The position numbers and the translations under genes were made by a program. The notes below the pieces were generated by a model that searched no databases, had not been told where the DNA came from, and was given only the letters and a program-made list of their open reading frames with translations. From positions 741,527 to 805,526 of the forward strand of contig JADJIQ010000002.1 of NCBI GenBank assembly GCA_016707005.1: a DNA stretch of 64,000 bases. Reading direction: 5' to 3'. Below are positions 11,628 through 54,068 of this stretch, piece by piece (position 1 is the first letter of the stretch; the number at the start of each line of letters is the position of its first letter). This DNA is from Ignavibacteria bacterium (GTDB taxonomy: Bacteria; Bacteroidota; Ignavibacteria; Kapaibacteriales; Kapaibacteriaceae).

Positions 11628-11660
11628 TCCAGACCTCACTGAAGAACAACAACTATTCTG

Positions 11661-11734
11661 CGCGCCCAGCAGGATTCGAACCTGCGGCCCGCAGCTTAGA
11701 AGGCTGCTGCTCTATCCAACTGAGCTATGGGCGC
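11661..11734 (-). tRNA. tRNA-Arg (anticodon TCT)
   Basis: Cloverleaf on minus strand: GCGCCCATAGCTCAGTTGGATAGAGCAGCAGCCTTCTAAGCTGCGGGCCGCAGGTTCGAATCCTGCTGGGCGCG; anticodon loop CTTCTAA; GTTCGAATC T-loop. Confidence 0.85.
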
Positions 11735-11744
11735 AACACACGAA

Positions 11745-11880
11745 GTTACGGAGTTACGGAGTTACGGAGTTACGCAGTTACAGAGTTACGGGGTTACAGG
11801 GTTACGGGGTTACTCTAGCACTCAAACACTCTAGCAATCTCATTAGCACATTAACACACTAGCACATTAGCACATTAACT
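11745..11880. repeat. composite tandem-repeat array: GTTACGGA x about 8 followed by degenerate TAGCACTC / ATTAGCAC units
   Basis: Direct reading: gttacggagttacggagttacggagttacgcagttacagagttacggggttacagggttacggggttact then ctagcactc...ctctagcaatctcattagcacattaacacactagcacattagcacattaact; begins 10 nt from tRNA 5' end. Confidence 0.75.
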
Positions 11881-14239: not shown

Positions 14240-15538
14240 ATGGACCTGAAACCCATTCTTGATGAATTGTTCGCGATGACGTTCCATGCCGGCATCAGAC
14301 CCGGCTTGGAGCGCATCACGGAGCTGTGCTCGCACCTTGATGAACCACATCTGCGCTATCCCGTCATCCACGTTGCCGGCACAAATGGCAAGGGCTCTAC
14401 CTGCTCCATGTTAGCCTCGATCCTCACCCACGCCGGGTACAAGGTTGGCCTCTACACCTCGCCGCACATCAGGCAGTTCAACGAACGTATTCGCATCAAC
14501 GGTACAATGATCTCCGATGAGGACGTGGCTCGTCTGGCTCGCCCCTTAATGGACCAGGCAAAGTCGTTCGGTGGAACGTTCTTTGAGGTCACCACAGCAA
14601 TGGCATTCCAATACTTTGCCGAGCGCAGAGTTGAGGTTGCGATCATTGAGACGGGGCTTGGCGGACGTTTTGATGCAACGAACATCGTACAGCCATTCCT
14701 GAGCATCATCACGCAGATCGATATCGACCACACGGAATACCTCGGCACAACACTTCCGCAGATCGCCGGCGAAAAGGCCGGGATCATCAAACAGGGGGCT
14801 CCTGTCGTGATCGGACATCGTTCCGGCATTGTGGTAAATGGACGGCCCGTTCCCGACATCCGAGATGTCTTCGTTCGTAAGGCAGAGTCCGCCAATACTC
14901 CGATCTCGTTCGCAGAAGACACGATCTATGTGGAAATGGATGCGATCCACCCCGACCTTACGATGACGGTGAGTGTTACGAATGACGCGGATCGCAAGTA
15001 CTACACAACCGACCTCTGTGGTCAGCATCAAACGAGCAACATCGCCACAGTGATCGCTGCCCTGCCGGCCATCAGTGAACTGTACTTCGTCGAAGAGCCA
15101 CACATACGAGAAGGACTGCTTCGCGTGAAGTCAACCTCTGGACTTTACGGACGATGCGACCTCATCAATGTAGATCCTTTCACAGTGATCGATGTATCGC
15201 ACAATCCCGGAGGCATTGCTGCCCTGCGAGACACGCTCATCGCCTCCGGCAAAACGCCGAACAGCATGCAGGTGGTCTTTGGTGCGATGTCCGATAAGGA
15301 CGTGGCTGGTATGATCGACGCCATCGCCCCGCTTGCACACACCCTACACCTATGCTCTCCTGCTCTCCCGCGCGCCCTTGCTGTGGAAGAGCTCCTCAAC
15401 CTGGCCCTGTCACGAGGCATCATGAACGCCGTAGCCCATTCGAGCGTGGCTCACGCCTACAAGGCAGCAATAGCTCATGGCCCAACCGTTGTGTGCGGGA
15501 GTTTCCATGTGATCGATGAAGTCATGCTAATGTGCTAA
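14240..15538 (+). CDS. folC: folylpolyglutamate synthase / dihydrofolate synthase
   Basis: P-loop VIHVAGTNGKGST, Mur-ligase family body; start moved to ATG at 14240 (MDLKPILDELF) right after terminator; last 4 codons and TAA stop lie inside ATGTGCTA repeat. Confidence 0.8.
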   Translation: MDLKPILDELFAMTFHAGIRPGLERITELCSHLDEPHLRYPVIHVAGTNGKGSTCSMLASILTHAGYKVGLYTSPHIRQFNERIRINGTMISDEDVARLARPLMDQAKSFGGTFFEVTTAMAFQYFAERRVEVAIIETGLGGRFDATNIVQPFLSIITQIDIDHTEYLGTTLPQIAGEKAGIIKQGAPVVIGHRSGIVVNGRPVPDIRDVFVRKAESANTPISFAEDTIYVEMDAIHPDLTMTVSVTNDADRKYYTTDLCGQHQTSNIATVIAALPAISELYFVEEPHIREGLLRVKSTSGLYGRCDLINVDPFTVIDVSHNPGGIAALRDTLIASGKTPNSMQVVFGAMSDKDVAGMIDAIAPLAHTLHLCSPALPRALAVEELLNLALSRGIMNAVAHSSVAHAYKAAIAHGPTVVCGSFHVIDEVMLMC

Positions 15539-15880
15539 TGTGCTAATGTGCTAATGTGCTAATGTGCTAATGTGCTAATGTGCTAATGTGCTAATGTGCT
15601 AATGTGCTAATGTGCTAATGTGCTAATGTGCTAATGTGCTAATGTGCTAATGTGCTAATGTGCTAATGTGCTAATGTGCTAATGTGCTAATGTGCTAATG
15701 TGCTAATGTGCTAATGTGCTAATGTGCTAATGTGCTAATGTGCTAATGTGCTAATGTGCTAATGTGCTAATGTGCTAATGTGCTAATGTGCTAATGTGCT
15801 AATGTGCTAATTTCGTGTATTAGCTCGTTAGCTAATTAGCACATTAGCACATTAGCACATTAGCACATTAGCACATTAAC
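15524..15880. repeat. foldback tandem array: ATGTGCTA x about 36 (15524-15810), 22-bp spacer, inverted ACATTAGC x 5 (15833-15880)
   Basis: Direct reading; right arm is exact reverse complement unit of left arm; array ends on the base before purH ATG. Confidence 0.9.
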
Positions 15881-24446: not shown

Positions 24447-25043
24447 GTGTTCACAGGATTGATCGAAGAGACAGGCGTGGTCACGTCAACGGTTGACCAA
24501 GCAGATGGCAAGCGCATCACGATCGCCGCTTCGCTAACGTTGGAAGATCTTGAGATCGACAACAGTATCGCCGTCAACGGAGTCTGCCTTACAGTGGTGG
24601 AGCGAACACCGAACACCTTTGATGTTGACGTGGTTGCTGAGACGCTGCGAAAGACAACCATCGGAATGCTTCGTCCGGATTCCGCTGTGAACCTCGAACG
24701 CGCCGTACGACTCAGCGATCGCCTTGGTGGTCACATCGTGCAAGGGCATGTAGATGCAACCGGCATCGTTGACACCATCCGCACCGGCGACGCAGGCTGG
24801 GAGATGTGGATCAGATTCCCTGCCGAGTATCGCAAGTGGCTTATTCCCGTTGGATCCGTCTGTATCAACGGCATTTCGTTGACCGTGGCAGAACTCGAGC
24901 CAGAACGATTCAAGGTGGCCATCATTCCACACACACTTTCCGTTACAACGCTCTCAACGTTGAACGAGAAGGACTCCGTCAATCTCGAATTCGACGTCCT
25001 CGCCAAATACATCGAAAACATCGCCACCTACAGAACATCATGA
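24447..25043 (+). CDS. ribE: riboflavin synthase (alpha subunit)
   Basis: MFTGLIEETGVV... duplicated lumazine-binding halves (SIAVNGVCLTVV / SVCINGISLTVA); GTG start. Confidence 0.85.
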   Translation: MFTGLIEETGVVTSTVDQADGKRITIAASLTLEDLEIDNSIAVNGVCLTVVERTPNTFDVDVVAETLRKTTIGMLRPDSAVNLERAVRLSDRLGGHIVQGHVDATGIVDTIRTGDAGWEMWIRFPAEYRKWLIPVGSVCINGISLTVAELEPERFKVAIIPHTLSVTTLSTLNEKDSVNLEFDVLAKYIENIATYRTS

Positions 25044-26536
25044 GCCTCCCAACAACGATCGGCGAGCTGAAGGCAGCAGGATATCAATACGAGTCTGTGA
25101 AGGACGAGCTACGTCGCAACGTGATCGAACGACTGCGAACCAACACGCCCATCTTCTCCGGCATCATCGGATTCGATGACACCGTGATACCGCAGATCGT
25201 GAACGCCATTCTTGCAAAGCACGATATTCTCTTGCTCGGTCTACGCGGTCAGGCAAAGACGCGCATCGCACGTCAACTCACCACGCTACTCGACGAATTC
25301 ATCCCTGTTGTCAAGGGCTCCGAGATCAACGATCATCCGTTGCGCCCCGTGTCCTACCAGGCCGTGCAGCTCGTTGCCGAACACGGAGATGCTACACCGA
25401 TCGAATGGCGTCCGCGCGAGGAACGCTATGGCGAGAAGCTTGCAACTCCAGACGTTAGTGTGGCCGACCTCATCGGAGACATCGATCCGATCAAGGCTGC
25501 CTCGCAACGTCTGCATTATGCACATGAGGGCGCCATCCACTTTGGGATCATTCCGCGCTCCAACCGAGGCATCTTTGTCATCAACGAAGTACCCGATCTT
25601 CAGCCTCGCATTCAAGTAGCGTTGTTCAACATTCTACAAGAGCGCGATATTCAGATAAGGGGCTTTAATGTTCGCCTCCCGATGGACATCGTGATGGTGT
25701 TCACGGCCAACCCTGAAGACTACACCAATCGTGGATCCATCGTTACGCCACTTAAGGACCGCATTCAGTCGCAGATCCTCACGCACTATCCGCGCAGCAT
25801 CGAAGACGGCATGGCCATCACTGCACAAGAATCATGGGTTGAGCGCTCGGGAATGCCCCTTATCATCCCTACGTATCTCAGCCAGGTTGTTGAGTCCGTT
25901 GCCATGATCGCTCGCACGAGCGAATACATCGATCAAACCAGCGGCGTTAGTGCGCGACTCACCATCTCCACGATGGAGAACATGGTCTCCAATGCCGAAC
26001 GTCGCGCCTACATCACCGGCGAGATGATCGTAGCCCCCCGACTCTGCGACCTTGGTCAGGCACTTGCAGGCATCACCGGCAAGGTGGAACTCGTCTTTGA
26101 GGGCGAAGAAGAAGGACCGCAGAAGGTTGCACGAGCACTCATCGGCAAGGCCGTGCGCGAGGTCTTCCGTCTTTCCATGCCTGATCCGAATGTGCGCAGA
26201 GCTCGTAAGGGAACTGCTGAAGAGAAACCCGATCCCTATCAGGCCATCGTCCGGTGGTTCGAACAAGGTCACGTTGTGAACATCGATGACCGAATGACAA
26301 ACGAGGAATTCTACAACGCCCTCATCGCCGTCCCCACACTCGCTCAGCTCGCATCCGTCTCGTTCCATGTAGAGACGTCAGACACTATTCGTCTAGCAAC
26401 CGCTATGGAATTCATTCTGGATGCACTGCATCAACATTCCAAGCTTGCAAAAGACGACAACAGCATGCAGACCACGTACAGAGATCTGGTGGGAAGCATT
26501 TTTACGCCGCCTTTGTCGATGACAGAGGACGAATAG
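25040..26536 (+). CDS. AAA+ ATPase, Mg-chelatase/Lon-related N-domain-like (no protease domain)
   Basis: ATG overlaps ribE stop (ATGA); Walker A LLLGLRGQAKTRIARQL, Walker B GIFVINEVPDL, sensor region; architecture resembles N-terminal ATPase part of the Lon-related protein at 17425; stop TAG is first triplet of the TAGTTAC array. Confidence 0.5.
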   Translation: MSLPTTIGELKAAGYQYESVKDELRRNVIERLRTNTPIFSGIIGFDDTVIPQIVNAILAKHDILLLGLRGQAKTRIARQLTTLLDEFIPVVKGSEINDHPLRPVSYQAVQLVAEHGDATPIEWRPREERYGEKLATPDVSVADLIGDIDPIKAASQRLHYAHEGAIHFGIIPRSNRGIFVINEVPDLQPRIQVALFNILQERDIQIRGFNVRLPMDIVMVFTANPEDYTNRGSIVTPLKDRIQSQILTHYPRSIEDGMAITAQESWVERSGMPLIIPTYLSQVVESVAMIARTSEYIDQTSGVSARLTISTMENMVSNAERRAYITGEMIVAPRLCDLGQALAGITGKVELVFEGEEEGPQKVARALIGKAVREVFRLSMPDPNVRRARKGTAEEKPDPYQAIVRWFEQGHVVNIDDRMTNEEFYNALIAVPTLAQLASVSFHVETSDTIRLATAMEFILDALHQHSKLAKDDNSMQTTYRDLVGSIFTPPLSMTEDE

Positions 26537-26627
26537 TTACTAGTTACTGGTTACTAGTTACTAGTTACTGGTTACTGGTTACTAGTTACTAGTTACTGGT
26601 TACTAGTTACTGGTTACTATTTACTAG
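26534..26627. repeat. tandem array TAGTTAC / TGGTTAC x about 13 (left arm of 4HB cassette 1)
   Basis: Direct reading tagttactagttactggttactagttac... Confidence 0.85.
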
Positions 26628-26691
26628 GTCTGGCGAAGGAGAAGTTTATTGAGGCGTGTCACGTACTGACGTGTTGAGAGCACGTAGCAGG

Positions 26692-27090
26692 ATGGGTCAT
26701 GAACGAGATATCATAAAAGAGCGACTTGTCGCTAGTCCACTGCACATCCTTTCAATCGAGTTTTCTCGAGAGGTGCGCAGTCTTGTACGGAAGGCATTCC
26801 AACATCAGGTTGTTGAGCGAATGCCACTTGATCAACTGTATCGTTCGGGGTCCTCGGTTGGAGCGAATATCCGTGAGAGCAGATATGCAGAATCTCCAAA
26901 GGACTTTGTACATAAGCTCAAGATCGCGGAGAAAGAGCTGGGTGAATTCTTCTATTGGATTGGATTGCTGTCGTCGAAACACGACATTTTTGATGAAGAC
27001 GCTGCCGCTGCCTGCGTCAACAAAGGCACACAAGTCCAAAAGCTACTTTCTTCGATCATTGTAACAACGAAACGCAACAACAGTTTGTAA
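26692..27090 (+). CDS. four-helix-bundle protein (TIGR02436 / 23S rRNA intervening-sequence protein family)
   Basis: Family core ...VVERMPLDQLYRSGSSVGANIRESRYAESPKDFVHKLKIAEKELGEFFYWIGLL; first ATG at 26692 (ORF-track start 26656 is GTG). Confidence 0.65.
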   Translation: MGHERDIIKERLVASPLHILSIEFSREVRSLVRKAFQHQVVERMPLDQLYRSGSSVGANIRESRYAESPKDFVHKLKIAEKELGEFFYWIGLLSSKHDIFDEDAAAACVNKGTQVQKLLSSIIVTTKRNNSL

Positions 27091-27123
27091 TCTCTTACGA
27101 ATTGCAATTCAACGAGGTATGGT

Positions 27124-27152
27124 GTAACTAGTAACTAGAAACTAGTAACTAG
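27124..27152. repeat. inverted array GTAACTA x 4 (right arm of 4HB cassette 1)
   Basis: gtaactagtaactagaaactagtaactag = reverse complement of left-arm unit; ends 2 nt before stop codon of convergent peptidase gene. Confidence 0.85.
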
Positions 27153-27154
27153 AC

Positions 27155-28705
27155 TTACTCTTCAAATCCCGCCGGAACATACGTTCCTCTTGGCATCTGA
27201 GTGGCAGTCCACATAACGTGGGTTGCGAGGCGTGTGATGCCAACGAGATCTGCCATGTTGATCTTCGATATCTCGTCGCCGGGCTTATGATAGTCTTTGT
27301 GTTCGCCGGTGAAGTAGAAGATCACGGGGATGCGTTTCATTGCAAAGGATGCTTGATCGCTGCGGAAGAAGTACTGCTCGATGTCGTAGGCAAGGTTGAA
27401 GGGTTTGGCGAGTGATGTGTTTGCTTCTTCATTGAGCTTCATGAGATCCGGACAGCGTTCGTTGCCGCCGATGGAGAGTTTGTTCGTTTCGCATCTGCCG
27501 ATCATGTCCATGTTGGACATCGCAACACACTTCGAGAGTGGAAGGGGCGAAGCACGCACATAGGCTTTGGAGCCGAGGAGCCCCTTTTCTTCGCCGGAGA
27601 AGGCAACGTAGACAATACTTCGTGACGGACGCTGAGTGCTTGCTGCGAGTGCTTGTGCCGAAAGCAGGAGTCCGGTAGTGCCGGAGCCGTTATCATCCGC
27701 TCCGTTATAGATAGAGTCACCTTCTGCATTGGCCTTCCCTACACCAACGTGATCATAATGCGCACCGATCACGGCATATTCGTCCGGTGTTTCGGAGCCG
27801 CGTAGGAGACCAACAACATTGCGGACCTTTACGATCTCGTGGTCAAGGGCAACAGAACATGAGAAACGAACTCCGGCGATCTCTCGTGAGCGCGGGATGA
27901 GGGTTGAGTCGATCGCACGTGTTATCGATACTACACCGGCGAGGGAGTCAAACAACAGAATAGCCGGGCGTTCTCCGATGTGGATGGACGGGATACGTTT
28001 TGTGCTATCCGGCAATTGTAGGGGGCGGGATGCACGCGAGAGGTTTGGGAAGACCGATGGCCATGGATATCCGGAAACGAATGGTTTGCGGAGCGTGCGA
28101 AGGGCATCGATGACGAGCAGTCCTACTGCGCCTTTGGAACGTGCGAGTTTTAGCTTCTCACTGTTTGAGCCGTGGCGGGTGAATTGTTTGCCACGGAAAC
28201 GGGTGGTGTCTGCATTGTCGGGCTCGCCTCGCAAGACAACGACCACTGCCCCCTTTACATCGATACCGGCGTAGTCATCGTATGAATACTCCGGTGCAGT
28301 GATCCCATATCCGGCAAATACAACACGTGCGTTGGTGATGACTCCTTCGCCCGTCTGTTCAAAGGGCATAAAATCGGTCTTGACGGAGAACGCAAAAGTG
28401 TCTGTGCCTCTTGTGAAATACATCGATGTTGGGAGACGAAGATCGAGGCGTTCGAGATCGTAGACCTGATCATAGGAACCATTGATCGGCTCAAGACCGA
28501 TACGTTTGAATTCCGATACGATGTAATCGGCGGCCTGCTCGAGTTCTCGTGAAGGTGTGTCTCTGCCGCGCATTTCGTCTGAGGACAGAAATGCAAGGTG
28601 ACGTCTTGCAGCAACCGTATCGAAATACAGCTCTGCATCCGGTGGGAATGGTCGGGGCTCTGATGCGCCACCGATGGCCAATGCGAGGAGAAGAGAGAGG
28701 ATCAT
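27155..28705 (-). CDS. M28-family peptidase with PA domain (aminopeptidase)
   Basis: Zn ligand motifs IGAHYDHVG, NGADDNGSGTTGLL, VAFSGEEKGLLGS; signal peptide. Confidence 0.8.
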   Translation of the reverse strand: MILSLLLALAIGGASEPRPFPPDAELYFDTVAARRHLAFLSSDEMRGRDTPSRELEQAADYIVSEFKRIGLEPINGSYDQVYDLERLDLRLPTSMYFTRGTDTFAFSVKTDFMPFEQTGEGVITNARVVFAGYGITAPEYSYDDYAGIDVKGAVVVVLRGEPDNADTTRFRGKQFTRHGSNSEKLKLARSKGAVGLLVIDALRTLRKPFVSGYPWPSVFPNLSRASRPLQLPDSTKRIPSIHIGERPAILLFDSLAGVVSITRAIDSTLIPRSREIAGVRFSCSVALDHEIVKVRNVVGLLRGSETPDEYAVIGAHYDHVGVGKANAEGDSIYNGADDNGSGTTGLLLSAQALAASTQRPSRSIVYVAFSGEEKGLLGSKAYVRASPLPLSKCVAMSNMDMIGRCETNKLSIGGNERCPDLMKLNEEANTSLAKPFNLAYDIEQYFFRSDQASFAMKRIPVIFYFTGEHKDYHKPGDEISKINMADLVGITRLATHVMWTATQMPRGTYVPAGFEE

Positions 28706-32255: not shown

Positions 32256-32389
32256 GCTTTTTAAGCGCCTTTGTAAGCGCCTTCTTCAAGCGCCTTTGTA
32301 AGCGCCTTTGTAAGCGCCTTCTTCAAGCGCCTTTGTAAGCGCCTTTGTAAGCGCCTTTGTAAGCGCCTTCTTCAAGCGCCTTTGTAAGC
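32256..32389. repeat. tandem array of 12/13-bp units AAGCGCCTTTGT / AAGCGCCTTCTTC x about 10 (left arm of 4HB cassette 2)
   Basis: Direct reading. Confidence 0.85.
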
Positions 32390-32440
32390 TGAGTCACGTT
32401 TAAGGGTTGTGAGAGTACGAAGAGGTTTTAGGGGAACCCT

Positions 32441-32899
32441 ATGTCTCTTCTTCAACTCCGCATGTATAAACGGGCCGGCGAGATCTCTGATGAGGTTGCT
32501 CTGTTTGCAAGTGCATGGCCGCACATCCATCGGAACACGATCGGAGATCAGATCATTAGAGCGGCGGATTCGATCTCAAACAACATTGCTGAAGGGTATG
32601 GCAGAACAGCAACAGGAGAACGCATCCAGTTTCTGATGTATGCCGATGGCTCGATCTCAGAAACAAGAAACTGTCTACATAGAGCATTCGGCCGGAACCT
32701 CATCGACGCAGACACCAACGCTCGACTTCAACAGCGCCTCGTATCATTGTCGATTAGTATCGTAGAGTTCGCACATGCTATAATTGAAAGAGACCCATCA
32801 TACAAGGGTCCATTCCGCGAACGAATCGCAAAACGCCGCGCCTGGCTTGTGAAGAAGCTCGCCAAGAACGGCGCAGCTCCCCCAAACGAACAATCTTAA
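32441..32899 (+). CDS. four-helix-bundle protein (TIGR02436 / 23S rRNA intervening-sequence protein family)
   Basis: Canonical family motif ...IIRAADSISNNIAEGYGRTATGERIQFLMYADGSISETRNCLHRAF...; ATG start; 152 aa. Confidence 0.8.
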   Translation: MSLLQLRMYKRAGEISDEVALFASAWPHIHRNTIGDQIIRAADSISNNIAEGYGRTATGERIQFLMYADGSISETRNCLHRAFGRNLIDADTNARLQQRLVSLSISIVEFAHAIIERDPSYKGPFRERIAKRRAWLVKKLAKNGAAPPNEQS

Positions 32900-33160
32900 A
32901 GAAGGCGCTTGCAGAAGGCGCTTGCAGAAGGCGCTTGAATAAGGCGCTTGAATAAGGCGCTTGAACAATGCGCTTGAACAAGGCGCTTGAACAAGGCGCT
33001 TGAACAAGGCGCTTGAACAAGGCGCTTGAACAAGGCGCTTGAACAAGGCGCTTAACGAAGGCGCTTAGAGAAGGCGCTTGAACAAGGCGCTTAGAGAAGG
33101 CGCTTGAACAAGGCGCTTGAACAAGGCGCTTAACGAAGGCGCTTGCAGAAGGCGCTTACA
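32900..33160. repeat. inverted tandem array of 13-bp units (A/G)AAGGCGCTTGAAC and variants x about 20 (right arm of 4HB cassette 2)
   Basis: Reverse complement GTTCAAGCGCCTT matches left-arm unit family; last unit overlaps the pcrA stop codon (cttaca). Confidence 0.85.
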
Positions 33161-39448: not shown

Positions 39449-39515
39449 CTAAGTTGACTTCTCCTTAGCCCTTTTGCATGTTGCATGTCACGTTTCCCTT
39501 CAACGGAGGCACTAC

Positions 39516-39782
39516 ATGATCATGGTCAATATGCACACAGCAAAGTCAACCCTCTCACAGCTCGTAGAGGAAGCTCTCATGGGAGAGGATGTGGTTATTG
39601 CCCGCAACGGCAAGCCCGTCGCAAGGCTTGTGGCTTTCATTCCGGTTGACACATCGAAGCTTCGTCCCATTGGACTTGGGTGCACAGGAGTGCCGTTAAT
39701 CGACAATTCTGAGTTTGAGCTTTTGTCAGCCACAAACCCAGATGTCTACGAAGAGAACCCCAACGATCCGTTGAACGAATGA
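39516..39782 (+). CDS. type II antitoxin, Phd/YefM family
   Basis: MVNMHTAKSTLSQLVEEALMGEDVVIARNGKPVARLV; 4-nt overlap with downstream PIN gene. Confidence 0.7.
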   Translation: MIMVNMHTAKSTLSQLVEEALMGEDVVIARNGKPVARLVAFIPVDTSKLRPIGLGCTGVPLIDNSEFELLSATNPDVYEENPNDPLNE

Positions 39783-40174
39783 ACAAGTCACTTCTCGTTG
39801 ACACTCATACTCTTCTCTGGTACGACGATGAACCAGACAAGCTATCGGGTGCGGTTCGCAAGGTGCTTCGCAACCCCAATGCGACAATATTTGTTTCTCC
39901 TATAAGCCTCTACGAGATCGCTCAGAAGGTGCGTCGCCAATCATTGCCATCGGCAACGCATCTCGTCAACGAGATCCACGTTCGCCTTCGTTTGTATGGG
40001 TTTACTATTCTACCGGTCAATGATCACCATGCACTCCGAGCCGCTAACCTCGATTGGGATCACCGTGATCCATTTGATCGAATGATCGCAGCTCAAGCAC
40101 TCGAAGAACATTGCGTCCTCGTTACAAAGGATGTTGCCTTCGCGGGCGTGAGCGGGCTGAAGACACTTTGGTGA
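39779..40174 (+). CDS. vapC: type II toxin VapC (PIN-domain RNase)
   Basis: LLVDTHTLLWY (Asp1), ...SLYEI..., FDRMIAAQALEEHCVLVTKD (distal acidic residues). Confidence 0.8.
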   Translation: MNKSLLVDTHTLLWYDDEPDKLSGAVRKVLRNPNATIFVSPISLYEIAQKVRRQSLPSATHLVNEIHVRLRLYGFTILPVNDHHALRAANLDWDHRDPFDRMIAAQALEEHCVLVTKDVAFAGVSGLKTLW

Positions 40175-40198
40175 CGGAGCGCTTTACCCCCATGACTA

Positions 40199-40291
40199 CG
40201 TCATGGGCTAGCGAACTTTCGCCCCTACGGGGCTGATCGAATGTTCGCTATTCGCTATTCGCTGCCTCGACTTCGCTCGGCATGACGTTCG
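40199..40291. repeat. perfect 8-bp-stem palindrome (CCCATGAC tac GTCATGGG) followed by TAGCGAAC / hairpin GCCCCtacGGGGC / degenerate TTCGCTA x 5
   Basis: Direct reading between convergent vapC and the 40292 gene. Confidence 0.5.
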
Positions 40292-47808: not shown

Positions 47809-48593
47809 TGCGCCTCGCTACCGTACAGTTCTGTCCCGCGTACAGAGATCCGGATGCCAATACCGACTTCATTGTGGAGACCATTGCCAGTACTGAAGCG
47901 GACGTCATCGTCTTTCCCGAACTCGCCACCAGCGGATATTTCTTTGTCACCCGCGAAGAAGTAGGGGGCATTGCAGAGCCCCTTACCGGACCTCATATCA
48001 CCCGCATCATCAACGCTGCAAAAACTCACGGTCGCATAGTGATCTGCGGTTTTGCTGAGCGTGATGGAGACCGTCTCTTCAACTCAGCGGTGATTGCCGG
48101 ACCGAACATCGAAACACAGGTCTATCGCAAAACGCATCTGTTCTACAAGGAGACGCTGTGTTTTGACGAGGGCGATAGCGGTTTCTCCGTTGTTCATCTA
48201 CCCCATCTCGATTGCAATCTCGGCGTGATGATCTGCTACGACTGGCGTTTTCCTGAAAGTGCCCGGACCCTTGCACTCAAGGGAGCTGACGTGATCGCCT
48301 GCCCATCAAACCTCGTCACCCACATCTGGCGCATGGCCATGCCCGTACGCGCCCTCGAGAACAAGGTCTACCTGGCAGTGGCCAACCGCTACGGCACAGA
48401 ATCCAACACCGAAGAAGACGTCACCTTCAACGGCCAAAGCGTGATCTACTCCTACAACGGAGACGTACTGGCAAGCGCCGATGCAGTTGGCACAACCACA
48501 CTCATCACCGAGATCGACCCCACCGCCACCCGCAACAAGACATTCAATTCTGTTAATGACATCCTTGCCGATCGCCGCCCAGAGAGATACTAG
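47805..48593 (+). CDS. carbon-nitrogen hydrolase (nitrilase superfamily)
   Basis: Glu in FPELATSGY, Lys, Cys in ICYDWRFPE; ATGA overlap with PAP2 gene; stop TAG is first triplet of the downstream repeat. Confidence 0.8.
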   Translation: MMRLATVQFCPAYRDPDANTDFIVETIASTEADVIVFPELATSGYFFVTREEVGGIAEPLTGPHITRIINAAKTHGRIVICGFAERDGDRLFNSAVIAGPNIETQVYRKTHLFYKETLCFDEGDSGFSVVHLPHLDCNLGVMICYDWRFPESARTLALKGADVIACPSNLVTHIWRMAMPVRALENKVYLAVANRYGTESNTEEDVTFNGQSVIYSYNGDVLASADAVGTTTLITEIDPTATRNKTFNSVNDILADRRPERY

Positions 48594-48717
48594 TTACTGG
48601 TTACTAGTTACTGGTTACTAGTTACTTGTAACTGGTAACTGGTAACTACTAACTAGTAACTAGTAACTAGTAACTGGCAACTAGTAACTAGTACTTAGTA
48701 ACTAGTAACTTGCAACT
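48591..48717. repeat. foldback tandem array: TAGTTAC/TGGTTAC x 5 then inverted TNGTAAC x about 13, no cargo
   Basis: Direct reading; centre at about 48626; ends on base before murC ATG; same unit family as array at 26534. Confidence 0.9.
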
Positions 48718-50085
48718 ATGACGTTTTCCTCCGTTCGACACATCCACTTCGTTGGCATTGGTGGCATTGGCATGAGCGGGATCGCCGAGATCCTTCTTTC
48801 GCAGGGGTTTGTTGTCAGTGGCTCAGACCTTAACCGAAGTGAAGTAACGGACCACCTTGCAACTCTTGGGGCGCGCATCTGCATTGGGCATGATGCACAA
48901 CACGTAGATAACGCCGAGGTAGTGGTCTACTCCAGTGCCGTTCGTCCACAGGAGAACCCCGAGACGTTGTTCGCCTTGGAGCGCAAGATCCCGATCATCC
49001 GTCGGGCAGAGATGCTCAGCGAGGTCTCCCGACTGAAGTATTGTCTGGCCATTGCCGGCACTCACGGCAAGACAACCACCACGTCCATGTGTGGCATCGT
49101 GATGATGAAGGCTGGCATGGACCCAACGGTCATTGTTGGCGGACGTCTCAAGGGACTTGGTGGCACGAATGCCCGGCTTGGACAGGGCGACTGGATCGTA
49201 CTCGAGGCCGATGAATACGACCGTTCCTTCCTCCAGCTCTTGCCCACCATTGCTGTGATCACGAATGTAGAGGCGGATCACCTTGACATCTATAGTGACC
49301 TCGACGATATAAAGGGGGCGTTCATCGAGTTCTCAAACAAGGTGCCGTTCTATGGCACTGCAGTGGTCTGCTTAGATGATCCGGGCGTGCGCGCCATCCT
49401 GCCGTCCATCAAACGGGTGGTTGTCACCTACGGCATGTCTGCGCAGTGTGATGTGCGCGCTGCAGACATCAGCTACAACGAACGCTCCTCCACCTATACA
49501 CTCGTACACAAGGGGAGCCCCCTTGGAGAGATCGAGCTTCACGTACCGGGTGACCACAACGTCCGCAATTCCCTTGCTGCTTGCGCAACTGCTCTTTTGT
49601 GCGGTGTTCCGTTCGATGTGATCAGGGATGGTCTTGCAGAGTTCGGAGGCGTGTTCCGTCGGTTCGAAGTCAAGGGAGAGGTAGGGGGCATCCTGGTCGT
49701 AGACGACTATGCCCACCACCCTACCGAGATCCGCTCAACGCTCACCGCGGCCCGACGTGGTTGGAAGCGTCGGATCGTTGCCGTGTTCCAGCCGCACACC
49801 TATACCCGAACCAGGGATTTCTACGCCGAGTTCGCCACTTCCTTTGACGAGGCCGATGTTTTGATCCTCACAGACGTTTATCCGGCACGCGAAGAGCCAA
49901 TTCCGGGGGTCAATGGGAAGCTTATCGCGGACGCTGCCAGGGATGCCGGACACCGCAACGTGCACTATGTAGAAGCGCCTGCAGACATCCCGGCACTGCT
50001 CAAGACCCTGGTTTTGGAGGGCGATATGGTGCTCACAATGGGTGCCGGAGATATATGGAAAGTAGGGTCGGCACTGCTCGCCTGA
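48718..50085 (+). CDS. murC: UDP-N-acetylmuramate--L-alanine ligase
   Basis: HFVGIGGIGMSGIAEIL and Mur ligase motifs. Confidence 0.9.
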   Translation: MTFSSVRHIHFVGIGGIGMSGIAEILLSQGFVVSGSDLNRSEVTDHLATLGARICIGHDAQHVDNAEVVVYSSAVRPQENPETLFALERKIPIIRRAEMLSEVSRLKYCLAIAGTHGKTTTTSMCGIVMMKAGMDPTVIVGGRLKGLGGTNARLGQGDWIVLEADEYDRSFLQLLPTIAVITNVEADHLDIYSDLDDIKGAFIEFSNKVPFYGTAVVCLDDPGVRAILPSIKRVVVTYGMSAQCDVRAADISYNERSSTYTLVHKGSPLGEIELHVPGDHNVRNSLAACATALLCGVPFDVIRDGLAEFGGVFRRFEVKGEVGGILVVDDYAHHPTEIRSTLTAARRGWKRRIVAVFQPHTYTRTRDFYAEFATSFDEADVLILTDVYPAREEPIPGVNGKLIADAARDAGHRNVHYVEAPADIPALLKTLVLEGDMVLTMGAGDIWKVGSALLA

Positions 50086-52288: not shown

Positions 52289-53577
52289 AAAGCCCCATGC
52301 GCACACTCAACATCTTCTTCATGTGCCTCCTTGTACTTGGCATCCCTACCTCTGTTTGGGCCCAAGACTCCATGGAAGGTATCATTGCCATCGTTGGTCG
52401 TGAGATCGTTCTCAAGTCCGATGTAGACGGTCAGATGGAGATGTTGGCCCAGCGTGATCCGCGCGTAGACCGCAAGGACGTCAAACTGCGTCAAGCAATC
52501 CTCGATCAGCTCATCAACGAGCGCCTCATCATGACCAAGGCCATAGAGGACAGCATTGAGGTAACAGATGAAGAGATCACGCAGCGCATGGAATATCAGA
52601 TCCAAACACTGATCCAGCAATTCGGCTCAGAGAAGCGTATCGAAGACATGTACGGCATGAGCATGATGCGCATCCGACGTGAATTCCGCGATGAGATCCG
52701 CAAACGTCTTCTCGTGGAGAAGATGCAACAGAAGCAATTCGGTCAGGTCAAGGCCTCCCGTGCAGATGTGGAAGCGTTCTACGCCAAATACCGCGACTCC
52801 TTGCCTAAGGTACCGGAACGTGTAGACCTCTTCCACATCGTGAAGTACGTGAAGGCCTCCGACGAAAAGAACAAGGAAGCATACACCCTTGCCATGCGTA
52901 TCAGAGACTCCATCGTAAAAGGGGGCTCCTTCAGCGACTTCGCACGCAGGTATTCCGGAGATCCGATCTCTGCATCGAACGGTGGCGACCTCGGAACCGT
53001 TGATCGCGGCAAATTTGTCCCGGCTTTCGAAACCGCTGCATTCAACCTGTCCCCTGATGAGATCTCTCAACCAGTCGAGACGCCGTTCGGATGGCACGTT
53101 ATTCAGCTCATCAGCAAGACAGCAACCTCGATGACTGCGCGACACATCCTCATTCGCGTAGGTCAGAGCGACGAAGACCGAGAACGCGTTAAGACCGAAC
53201 TCGTTGCACTCAAACAACGTGTTGAAAAGGGCGAGAACTTTGAGACACTCGCTCGTGAATTCAGTGATGAAAAAGAGACCCAAGGCTTCGGTGGATCAAT
53301 GGGTCAGATCGAACTCGCCCGTCTTCCGGAAGAGATGCAAACATCTCTCAATGCCATGAAGGACGGTGCTGTCTCCGACCCTTCACCGTATGCCGCAGAC
53401 CCAACTAAGCCCGGCTTCCACATCCTCTACCGCAAGCGCATCATCCCTGCTCACACCCCGTCCGTCGACGAAGACTACAAACAACTCGAACAAATGGCAT
53501 CCTTCGAAAAGAAGCAACGCCTCGAACAAGAGTGGGTGCAGAAGCTGCGGAAAGAGTTGTATTGGGAAACGCGTTAG
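52285..53577 (+). CDS. surA: SurA-type chaperone / peptidyl-prolyl isomerase
   Basis: Signal peptide MKSPMRTLNIFFMCLLVLGIPTSVWAQ; SurA N-domain plus two parvulin domains (FGWHVIQLI, GFHILYRK); ATGA overlap; stop TAG is in the repeat. Confidence 0.75.
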   Translation: MKSPMRTLNIFFMCLLVLGIPTSVWAQDSMEGIIAIVGREIVLKSDVDGQMEMLAQRDPRVDRKDVKLRQAILDQLINERLIMTKAIEDSIEVTDEEITQRMEYQIQTLIQQFGSEKRIEDMYGMSMMRIRREFRDEIRKRLLVEKMQQKQFGQVKASRADVEAFYAKYRDSLPKVPERVDLFHIVKYVKASDEKNKEAYTLAMRIRDSIVKGGSFSDFARRYSGDPISASNGGDLGTVDRGKFVPAFETAAFNLSPDEISQPVETPFGWHVIQLISKTATSMTARHILIRVGQSDEDRERVKTELVALKQRVEKGENFETLAREFSDEKETQGFGGSMGQIELARLPEEMQTSLNAMKDGAVSDPSPYAADPTKPGFHILYRKRIIPAHTPSVDEDYKQLEQMASFEKKQRLEQEWVQKLRKELYWETR

Positions 53578-53618
53578 AGTGCTAGAGTGCTAGATTGTTA
53601 GAGTGCTAGATTGTTAGA
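53573..53618. repeat. tandem array of units TAGAGTGCTAGATTGT x about 3 (arm of 4HB cassette 3)
   Basis: gttagagtgctagagtgctagattgttagagtgctagattgttag. Confidence 0.85.
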
Positions 53619-53621
53619 CCC

Positions 53622-53990
53622 TCATCTGGTTTTTGGGGGTCGTTGTTGATTGCGAACTGCGGTAGATATAGACGAACTCATCAGCCGTCCAAGCTCATCA
53701 AGAAGACCATCGATCGTTTGTTTCCATGAGCTTGGCACTCCATTTCTTTCGGTGAAATGGATAGAGAGAGATTCGGCTTCTCGTAACTCCTTATGAGCAA
53801 GCTTCAGTTTGTGTATGAGGTCTCGCCGACTTTGGCAGCTCTGCGCTTCAGAGATGTTATTCATGACAGCTAGGGCGACACCCTCCGTCTGATTTCCAAG
53901 ACGAAACAGATGTTGACTGTTTACGATCCTCACAACTTCTAACAGATAGATCGATAACAGACGCGATTTTATCATTGATGGGGACGTCAT
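53622..53990 (-). CDS. four-helix-bundle protein (TIGR02436-like, divergent)
   Basis: ...NSQHLFRLGNQTEGVALAVMNNISEAQSCQSRRDLIHKLKLAHKELREAESL aligns with the NIAEG...F..L.IA.GS..E motif region of the other two copies; track start 54032 is a GTG inside the repeat, first ATG at 53990. Confidence 0.55.
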   Translation of the reverse strand: MTSPSMIKSRLLSIYLLEVVRIVNSQHLFRLGNQTEGVALAVMNNISEAQSCQSRRDLIHKLKLAHKELREAESLSIHFTERNGVPSSWKQTIDGLLDELGRLMSSSISTAVRNQQRPPKTR

Positions 53991-54024
53991 CCTTCTATGT
54001 GCTACTAACACCACAGAACGTGAC

Positions 54025-54068
54025 TCTAGCACTCTAACAATCTAGCACTCTAACAATCTAGCACTCTA
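54025..54068. repeat. inverted array CTCTAGCACTCTAACAAT x about 2.5 (other arm of 4HB cassette 3)
   Basis: Exact reverse complement of 53573 array unit; ends 6 nt before stop of OMP gene. Confidence 0.85.

Follow-up and report, generated by a model that had tools for sequence, protein, structure and literature searches.

A four-helix-bundle gene between inverted heptamer arrays in an Ignavibacteria genome: a candidate intergenic counterpart of 23S rRNA intervening sequences

Why should a small gene for a four-helix-bundle (4HB) protein lie between two arrays of one 7-nt word, the second array written as the reverse complement of the first, at the point where two housekeeping genes converge? 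The question is raised by a 619-nt cassette at positions 26534–27152 of a 64,000-nt stretch of Ignavibacteria bacterium DNA (GenBank assembly GCA_016707005.1, contig JADJIQ010000002.1), hereafter the window. The enclosed gene belongs to PF05635, a large family known as S23p, the protein of intervening sequences (IVSs) in ribosomal RNA, and as Avd, the cofactor of diversity-generating retroelements (DGRs). Our answer, which we hold to be somewhat better than an even bet, is that the locus is a foldback cassette of the IVS type with functional arms, formerly mobile and by now passed on mainly by vertical inheritance.

The cassette and its two neighbours are arranged as follows.

25040–26536, + strand: upstream neighbour, a MoxR/ChlI-like AAA+ ATPase gene, 498 aa (open reading frame (ORF) list; Pfam AAA_5/Mg_chelatase; public gene calls)
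26534–26627, + strand: left arm, 13 tandem heptamers T[A/G]GTTAC, the final unit TATTTAC (Tandem Repeats Finder (TRF), unit parsing)
26628–26691, + strand: leader with a conserved bipartite motif (locus comparison with control windows)
26692–27090, + strand: 4HB gene, 132 aa, TIGR02436/PF05635, Avd-like fold (hidden Markov models (HMMs), structure model)
27091–27123, + strand: 3′ spacer from the 4HB stop codon to the right arm (sequence)
27124–27152, + strand: right arm, 4 heptamers, GTAACTA, GTAACTA, GAAACTA and GTAACTA (TRF, inverted repeats, unit list)
27155–28705, − strand: convergent neighbour, an M28 peptidase gene, 516 aa (ORF list; Pfam Peptidase_M28, E 1e-41)

The ATPase gene starts at ATG 25040, the start also called in public records, and its TAG stop (26534–26536) consists of the first three bases of the left array. 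TRF reports 13.4 copies of TAGTTAC there (score 146), which unit parsing resolves into 12 clean TAGTTAC/TGGTTAC units and one TATTTAC. The right-arm unit is the reverse complement of the left-arm unit, and inverted-repeat analysis gives 93% complementarity over 29 nt; only 2 nt separate the right arm from the M28 peptidase stop codon (27155–27157). The window contains 27 matches to a 21-nt three-unit pattern with at most 2 mismatches, where 100 shuffles give an expectation of 0.00; all 27 fall at this cassette or at 48584–48718. The TAGTTAC array (26534–26627) also contains the palindrome ACTAGT, so that the long arm is able to fold on itself.

The whole cassette is base-identical across several independent assemblies, with long-read metagenome-assembled genomes (MAGs), a megahit short-read wastewater assembly and a JGI contig among those compared, and therefore the arrays are not an assembly artefact. 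The window's sources are Ignavibacteria/Kapabacteria MAGs from wastewater. One assembly of the same species (L003, GCA_016705185.1, 11551–12052) carries a cassette 118 bp shorter, with small deletions only in the 5′ half of the 4HB gene (called there as 67 aa) and with identical arms and 3′ half; it is either a pseudogene or a consensus error. The initial annotation had read about 13 TAGTTAC/TGGTTAC units supplying the ATPase stop and four GTAACTA-type units ending 2 nt before the M28 stop. The first statement is borne out by sequence, TRF and unit parsing, and the second holds with one unit being GAAACTA. Its start codon, ATG 26692, also stands, but its protein length of 133 aa gives way to the 132 aa of public gene calls, and its concern that the arrays might be artefactual is removed by their identity in long-read and short-read data.

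The 132-aa product scores 67.4 bits against TIGR02436 (cutoff 24) and 54.8 bits against PF05635 (cutoff 33.8), which secures the 4HB family placement first proposed for it. A profile of the protein and its relatives matched the PDB entry 2RLD at E 1.9e-31, and 2GSC as well; the crystals of these two proteins contain five chains each, and a homopentamer of S23p/PF05635 is cited in PMC4990558. The AlphaFold2 (AF2) model has four long helices at a confidence (pLDDT) of 92. Foldseek ranked 2RLD first (template-modelling (TM) scores 0.73/0.89), then 2GSC (0.75/0.85), then Avd of the Bordetella phage DGR (4DWL) and the DGR ribonucleoprotein (8UB7/8UB8), these last with TM 0.65–0.80 and with a sequence identity to Avd of 14–16%. 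Model and Foldseek together show an up-down four-helix bundle like those of 2RLD and 2GSC. The protein is basic (pI 9.1), as are the two other 4HB proteins of the window (pI 9.8 and 10.6), and pI exceeds 8 in 80% of 65 homologues. None of the window's three 4HB proteins was matched by PADLOC or PHROGs, and the single ORF of the cassette, this helical bundle, matched no transposase family in the HMM, PADLOC and PHROGs searches.

The layout is not peculiar to this locus. A family-profile scan of one genome per GTDB species gave 80 loci in Ignavibacteria, Kapabacteria and many Bacteroidota, and TRF found arrays on both sides in almost all 80, with many different units. When we took the best ungapped inverted match between the 300-nt flanks, a score of at least 14 was reached by 61 of 76 analysable 4HB loci and by 2 of 125 controls shifted 1.5 kb at the same loci. 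Of 130 arrays, 112 have a period of 7 or 8 or of some multiple of either, and the arms have a polarity: out of 65 loci, the left arm is richer in G than C in 54 and the right arm richer in C than G in 57. The stop codons of the flanking genes are, at most loci, no more than a few nucleotides from the outer edge of the array, and the arrays often supply those stops. Viral contigs yielded no relatives of the 4HB subfamily studied here.

Plasmids extend the range. A tblastn search of plasmid records with another of the window's 4HB proteins returned 15 records, and inverted arrays surround the PF05635 gene in six of the eight that were inspected. The units are AGGGTGT/ACACCCT in Calothrix and Nostoc punctiforme, AGGGAAC/GTTCCCT in Nostoc sp. 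C052, AAAGGGA/TCCCTTT in Geminocystis and AAGGTTCA/TGAACCTT in Riemerella. The layout of a gene flanked by inverted arrays occurs in four phyla at least. On the cyanobacterial plasmids (L108, L110, L113, L114) the 4HB genes come directly after integrase, TraM-like or ParA-like genes, and the G-rich and C-rich inverted heptamers (AGGGTGT, AGGGAAC, AAAGGGA) resemble classic cyanobacterial heptamer repeats.

The sixth of these plasmid records connects the layout to ribosomal RNA. In the Azospirillum lipoferum 4B plasmid AZO_p2 (L112, 930–1400) the PF05635 ORF lies inside a 23S rRNA gene, identified by Rfam LSU_rRNA_bacteria at 1676 bits, and is a classic intervening sequence. Its left arm reads CAGAGGA CGGATGA CAGAGGA CGGAGGA CAGAAAG and its right arm TCCGTCC TCTGTCT TCTGTCA TCCGTCT TCTGAGT. 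This ORF is unannotated in the (incomplete) gene table of the plasmid collection.

What happens to such a cassette over time can be read at the ATPase/M28 site in relatives.

L011, L012, L101 (ATPase 90% identical, full-length in L011 and L012; M28 89%): cassette present, with its interior, leader plus gene, inverted
L013 (ATPase 87–89%, M28 70%): cassette in the window's orientation, arms of 10 and 23 units
L091, L093 (ATPase 86–87%, M28 71%): synteny conserved, 4HB gene absent, short arrays spanning about 50 nt

The arrays thus change length fast, and the interior has been inverted between species. In L011, L012 and L101 the long arm remains on the ATPase side and both neighbours end in the TAG of a first unit; their 4HB proteins are 100% identical, yet the ATPase-side arm has 6, 10 and 17 units. 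Across the relatives the arms at this site range from 4 to 23 units. Orientation follows species: the window's species (L001–L010 and L100, in all readable assemblies) has it one way, and L011, L012 and L101 the other. The short arrays of L091 and L093, GAGATGAC x2 and GTAATTN x3, still touch the stops of both neighbours, and arrays can apparently remain in place, inverted and empty, once the gene has gone. More distant ATPase homologues (54–58%) have no M28 match within 3.5 kb after the gene, and their downstream sequence has no arrays.

Divergence between the window and L012 gives the cassette an age. The 4HB gene has a nonsynonymous divergence (dN) of 0.20 and a synonymous divergence (dS) of 1.23 (dN/dS 0.16), the M28 gene a dS of 1.26 and dN/dS 0.06, and the ATPase gene dN/dS 0.03. 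The 4HB gene is therefore under purifying selection, with a weaker constraint than its housekeeping neighbours, and since its dS equals that of M28 the cassette is as old at this site as they are. With synonymous sites near saturation, both arms have kept the GTTAC/GTAAC core in all three lineages, and variation is mainly at two non-core positions and in copy number. Deeper relatives have different units, yet a change in the left arm is accompanied by one in the right. The arms are thus constrained as well as the gene, and both are therefore functional: the gene is kept by purifying selection, and the arms retain their core where neutral sites are saturated.

The window itself holds two further PF05635 genes (32441–32899, and 53622–54032 on the − strand), 20–25% identical to the first 4HB protein, as well as arrays that enclose no gene.

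11740–11877: mixed array, ACGGAGTT x9, ACTCTAGC x3.6 and CATTAGCA x4.6 in a row
15525–15878: gene-less array pair, TGCTAATG x36 (100% identical copies), then inverted ATTAGCAC x7
32257–33157: second 4HB cassette (gene 32441–32899), between a histidine kinase gene and uvrD
48591–48717: gene-less pair with the TAGTTAC unit, 5 TAGTTAC/TGGTTAC units abutting about 13 GTAACTA/GTAACTG units
53575–54068: third 4HB cassette (gene 53622–54032, − strand), inverted 8-mers TAGAGTGC/ACTCTAGC

The arms of the cassette at 32257–33157 consist of 12/13-mers with an inverted core AAGCGCCTT/AAGGCGCTT, and its right arm counts 19, 15 or 13 cores across assemblies of the same species. At 53575–54068 the TAG stop of a SurA-like upstream gene lies inside the first unit. 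Seven of eight gene-end boundaries in the window are within a few nucleotides of the outer edge of an array. The gene-less pair at 15525–15878 stands between a Mur-ligase gene and purH, and its 8-mer (TAATGTGC/GCACATTA) flanks 4HB genes in many Bacteroidota loci (L056, L061, L075, L079, L085). The mixed array at 11740–11877 is directly upstream of the 5′ end of tRNA-Arg(TCT) (11660–11734, − strand), and two of its units match arms of other cassettes or arrays in the window.

The pair at 48591–48717 is the most telling of these. It takes up all of the DNA between a CN_hydrolase gene and murC: the first unit contains the TAG stop of the former, and the ATG of murC comes after the last unit. In three relatives with MurC 78–85% identical, CN_hydrolase and murC overlap by ATGA and have no intergenic DNA between them, and therefore the arrays were inserted in the window's lineage. 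The closest relative (L103, MurC 95%) has the arrays with 50 nt separating them, a spacer that aligns loosely with 4HB leaders, including that of the ATPase/M28 cassette of the same genome. The resemblance of this spacer to a 4HB leader is suggestive, not proven; the insertion probably brought with it a gene that has since disappeared. Orthologous sites are polymorphic for presence or absence both here and at the ATPase/M28 site (L091, L093). Stops in all frames within the arms would make insertions at gene ends tolerable.

The comparison across loci upholds what the initial annotation had claimed on the system as a whole, that it is defined by architecture and not by sequence (61 of 76 related loci, many different 7/8-nt units) and that the cassette shares its layout with a second one in the window; both other 4HB genes of the window lie between inverted arrays of different units. 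Its observation of a left arm about three times the right is correct here (13 units versus 4), but this is not a fixed property, as the relatives' arms of 4 to 23 units show. The inversion of the interior, the gene-less state, the gene-less insertion of the same unit and the link to 23S rRNA IVSs were absent from it.

The cassettes share a leader as well. Of 35 Ignavibacteria/Kapabacteria loci, 34 carry GTCACG at the inner edge of the upstream arm; the corresponding counts for control windows are 4 of 34 and 0 of 36. A bipartite motif, GTCAC-N17-19-YAC...-N3-9-ATG, is present at 19 of 36 loci, and 285 kb of control sequence gave 6 matches to it. All three 4HB cassettes of the window have the leader motif; at the ATPase/M28 site GTCAC (26658–26662) is followed by 18 nt, CACGTA (26681–26686), 5 nt and the ATG. 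The spacing would fit the promoter of a leaderless mRNA. A scan for promoters and terminators found neither sigma-70 promoters nor intrinsic terminators above shuffled expectation, and the arms have no U-tract. The same motif (GTCACG-N18-CAC..ATG, 39487–39524) precedes a Phd/YefM antitoxin and PIN toxin pair (39516–40174), and TTCGCTA x3 stands 3′ of that pair (40244–40263, in the region 39450–40290); the pair may be a related cassette that carries something else, unless the motif is simply a promoter type common in the organism.

At the level of RNA, the minimum-free-energy (MFE) fold of a transcript of 26520–27165 has an arm–arm stem that encloses the ORF (−215 kcal/mol, z −4.5), and the pair at 48591–48717 is predicted to form a long hairpin (−68 kcal/mol, z −7.4). 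Rfam at lax thresholds over 26300–27400 returned only sub-threshold matches to plant and animal miRNAs, caused by the quasi-palindromic array, and no rRNA; these were set aside.

We envisage the following mechanism. A PF05635 4HB gene of the Avd/S23p family, with its own leader and bracketed by inverted 7–8-nt arrays, would be the intergenic counterpart of an IVS. In transcripts that read through from a neighbour or start at the cassette's own promoter, the arms would pair into a stem of at least 29 bp, which RNase III may process by analogy with the IVSs of rRNA. Processing would release the 4HB mRNA, and the transcripts of the neighbours would be left with a stem capping their 3′ ends. The 4HB protein, which is basic and probably a pentamer, may in turn recognise the repeated units of its own arms, and such recognition would explain both why cassettes are unit-specific and why gene-less arrays of the same unit are dispersed.

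Several observations weigh against this foldback reading. The arms are unequal and degenerate, and only about 29 nt of them are able to pair. On the sense strand of the gene, arm mismatches show no bias for G-U over A-C (49 versus 52), and most arm mismatches across loci are transversions; pairing of RNA from one strand is thus without support from covariation, and the constraint could equally be on DNA or on an inverted protein site. Binding of the arrays by the 4HB protein is itself inferred. No catalytic domain, recombinase, transposase or reverse transcriptase (RT) stands beside the cassette in annotated loci, and we looked for a target-site duplication at the 48.6-kb junctions and saw none. 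The gene-less state of L091 may be loss or primary absence, as the lineages form a trichotomy. The cassette is old and vertically inherited, with a dS equal to that of its neighbours, which speaks for slow or extinct mobility here. Finally, the leader motif is not exclusive to 4HB genes and is possibly an ordinary promoter of the organism.

The strongest alternative is that the arrays serve the host, as hairpins that terminate, insulate or stabilise mRNA, with the 4HB protein an RNA-binding regulator and no mobility involved. The arrays do abut stop codons at most loci, strong hairpins are predicted for them, and this cassette lies between convergent housekeeping genes with long vertical inheritance and purifying selection. 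An element at the service of 3′ ends would nevertheless hardly be expected to enter an ATGA overlap in a conserved gene string and break its translational coupling, as the 48591–48717 pair did, nor to occur in the same architecture inside 23S rRNA, where it serves no mRNA 3′ end. One close relative lacks the gene at this position, terminator-like sites are no more frequent than chance would give, the arms lack a U-tract, and many unrelated unit sequences are present together in one genome. We regard this explanation as unlikely, if the least so of those that compete with the foldback cassette.

That the cassette is a satellite of a retroelement, in which the Avd-like 4HB protein works with an RT supplied in trans, an arm-closed RNA is copied and re-integrated, and the units arise from repeated copying of the template, seems to us improbable. 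Its attraction is in the fold, which matches Avd and the DGR ribonucleoprotein (TM 0.65–0.80), in the fact that PF05635 is the Pfam family most commonly linked to DGRs (PMC10053308) and in the evidence of past insertion. Against it, annotated loci show no RT, template repeat (TR) or variable repeat (VR) beside the cassette: the RVT family is not in the Pfam lists of genes within 5–10 kb on each side (depending on locus), and those neighbours are housekeeping genes. Identity to Avd is only 14–16%, a search of viral contigs found no relatives, and the one-unit steps in length among near-identical cassettes are what replication slippage produces.

The inverted interior invites a further thought, that the arms are recombination sites of an inverton and that flipping the promoter-bearing interior switches between sense and antisense transcription into the neighbours. 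The interior does have opposite orientations in two related species with the arms in place, and a promoter-like leader lies within the invertible segment. Readable assemblies, however, show a single orientation per species, no invertase is nearby in annotated loci, and the gene is conserved as a coding sequence; we give this explanation very little credence. Among the assemblies compared, the two orientations were never seen together within one species, and the inverton reading was rejected on that ground.

Simple repeats without function, prone to slippage and close to a small gene only by chance, are scarcely credible, and so is an assembly artefact: the copy number of the 13-mer array at 32257–33157 does vary between assemblies, but the arrays studied here are identical in independent ones, inverted arms mark 61 of 76 loci against 2 of 125 controls, complementary cores are kept in both arms at dS above 1, and chance expectation is 0.

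A wider proposal can also be made, which we advance tentatively and would not ourselves back at even odds. PF05635 proteins may be sequence-specific binders of their own 7–8-nt arrays and the factor that acts in trans in a large, hitherto unrecognised superfamily of foldback mobile elements, with 23S rRNA IVSs, orphan Avd-like genes and intergenic heptamer/octamer arrays as forms or remnants of one type of element. Orphan Avd-like genes of Bacteroidota, Ignavibacteriota and Cyanobacteriota would then belong together, and TAACTGA arrays, STRR-like (short tandemly repeated repetitive) sequences, long simple sequence repeats and gene-less hairpin arrays would be forms or remnants of the same element, which possibly moves through an RNA intermediate processed by RNase III. 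Three puzzles that have stood for decades, the function of PF05635, the origin of 23S rRNA IVSs and the source of intergenic heptamer arrays, are tied together here by a single architecture, in which inverted arrays of a 7/8-nt unit enclose a gene. The reading predicts unit-specific binding by the 4HB oligomer and RNase III cuts in the arms, and also that arrays without a gene are copies that have decayed or are non-autonomous. There is a consequence for annotation too, since such arrays supply the stop codons of neighbours, break short-read assemblies and change length between strains, and the layout may account for many puzzling short-repeat arrays in bacterial genomes.

Among known systems, foldback transposons, miniature inverted-repeat transposable elements (MITEs) and REPINs with their RAYT proteins share with the cassette inverted arms made of short tandem repeats, a variable length and a location at gene ends. 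As in foldback elements and MITEs, gene-carrying and gene-less copies have the same arms, and one insertion is documented (48591–48717). Unlike them, the cassette has no transposase or RAYT-type protein and no target-site duplication is seen, and this copy has kept its site across species.

PF05635 has been equated with Avd (PMC10053308). The 4HB protein resembles DGR Avd (4DWL, 8UB7) in being basic and in its four-helix-bundle fold, and crystals of its homologues 2RLD and 2GSC have five chains, the number in the Avd pentamer. The locus differs from a DGR in the lack of RT, TR and VR and in the low sequence identity already given, and flanking tandem arrays are not described as a DGR feature.

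Arrays of the kind that flank the gene have been seen before on their own. The cyanobacterial STRR sequences and long simple sequence repeats are intergenic heptamer arrays comparable to those of the cassette. Unexplained intergenic arrays of the heptamer TAACTGA, with 7-nt indels between strains, were reported from Beggiatoaceae, Cyanobacteria and Bacteroidetes (MacGregor 2015, PMC4679880), and they too are tandem 7-nt units near start and stop codons with a patchy phylogenetic distribution. The GTAACTA/G/C units of the cassette are close to TAACTGA, and an arm in L012 contains TCAGTTA, its exact complement. The TAACTGA arrays differ in being reported as direct repeats, and the paper mentions neither an inverted partner array nor an enclosed PF05635 gene (PMC4679880).

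The closest likeness is to the IVSs of 23S rRNA, as in Leptospira and Coxiella burnetii. The Coxiella IVS is a 428-nt selfish element with an S23p ORF between terminal inverted repeats, whose 28-bp terminal stem is cut by RNase III, with excision shown experimentally (PMC4990558, Warrier et al. 2016); that paper also cites older ideas of IVSs as remnants of transposition or as mobile elements whose ORF serves mobility. Like an IVS, the cassette has an S23p/PF05635 ORF, falls in the size range of about 430–620 nt and places the ORF between terminal inverted sequences that form a long stem, and with the Azospirillum IVS it shares arms built as heptamer arrays, five per side in that case. Unlike an IVS, it does not sit in helix 9, 25 or 45 of 23S rRNA but between an ATPase and an M28 gene, its arrays are long and unequal (13 versus 4 units), and it has a conserved promoter-like leader; excision by RNase III, shown for IVSs, is for the cassette an inference. 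Full-text searches of the literature, subscription-only papers and database comments aside, gave no description of a PF05635 gene between inverted tandem arrays. The protein family and the concept of the IVS are already known; the typical bracketing of the gene by inverted 7/8-nt arrays, the occurrence of this layout outside rRNA and across phyla, the inversion of the interior, the arms that outlive the gene and the insertion at a gene junction appear to be new.

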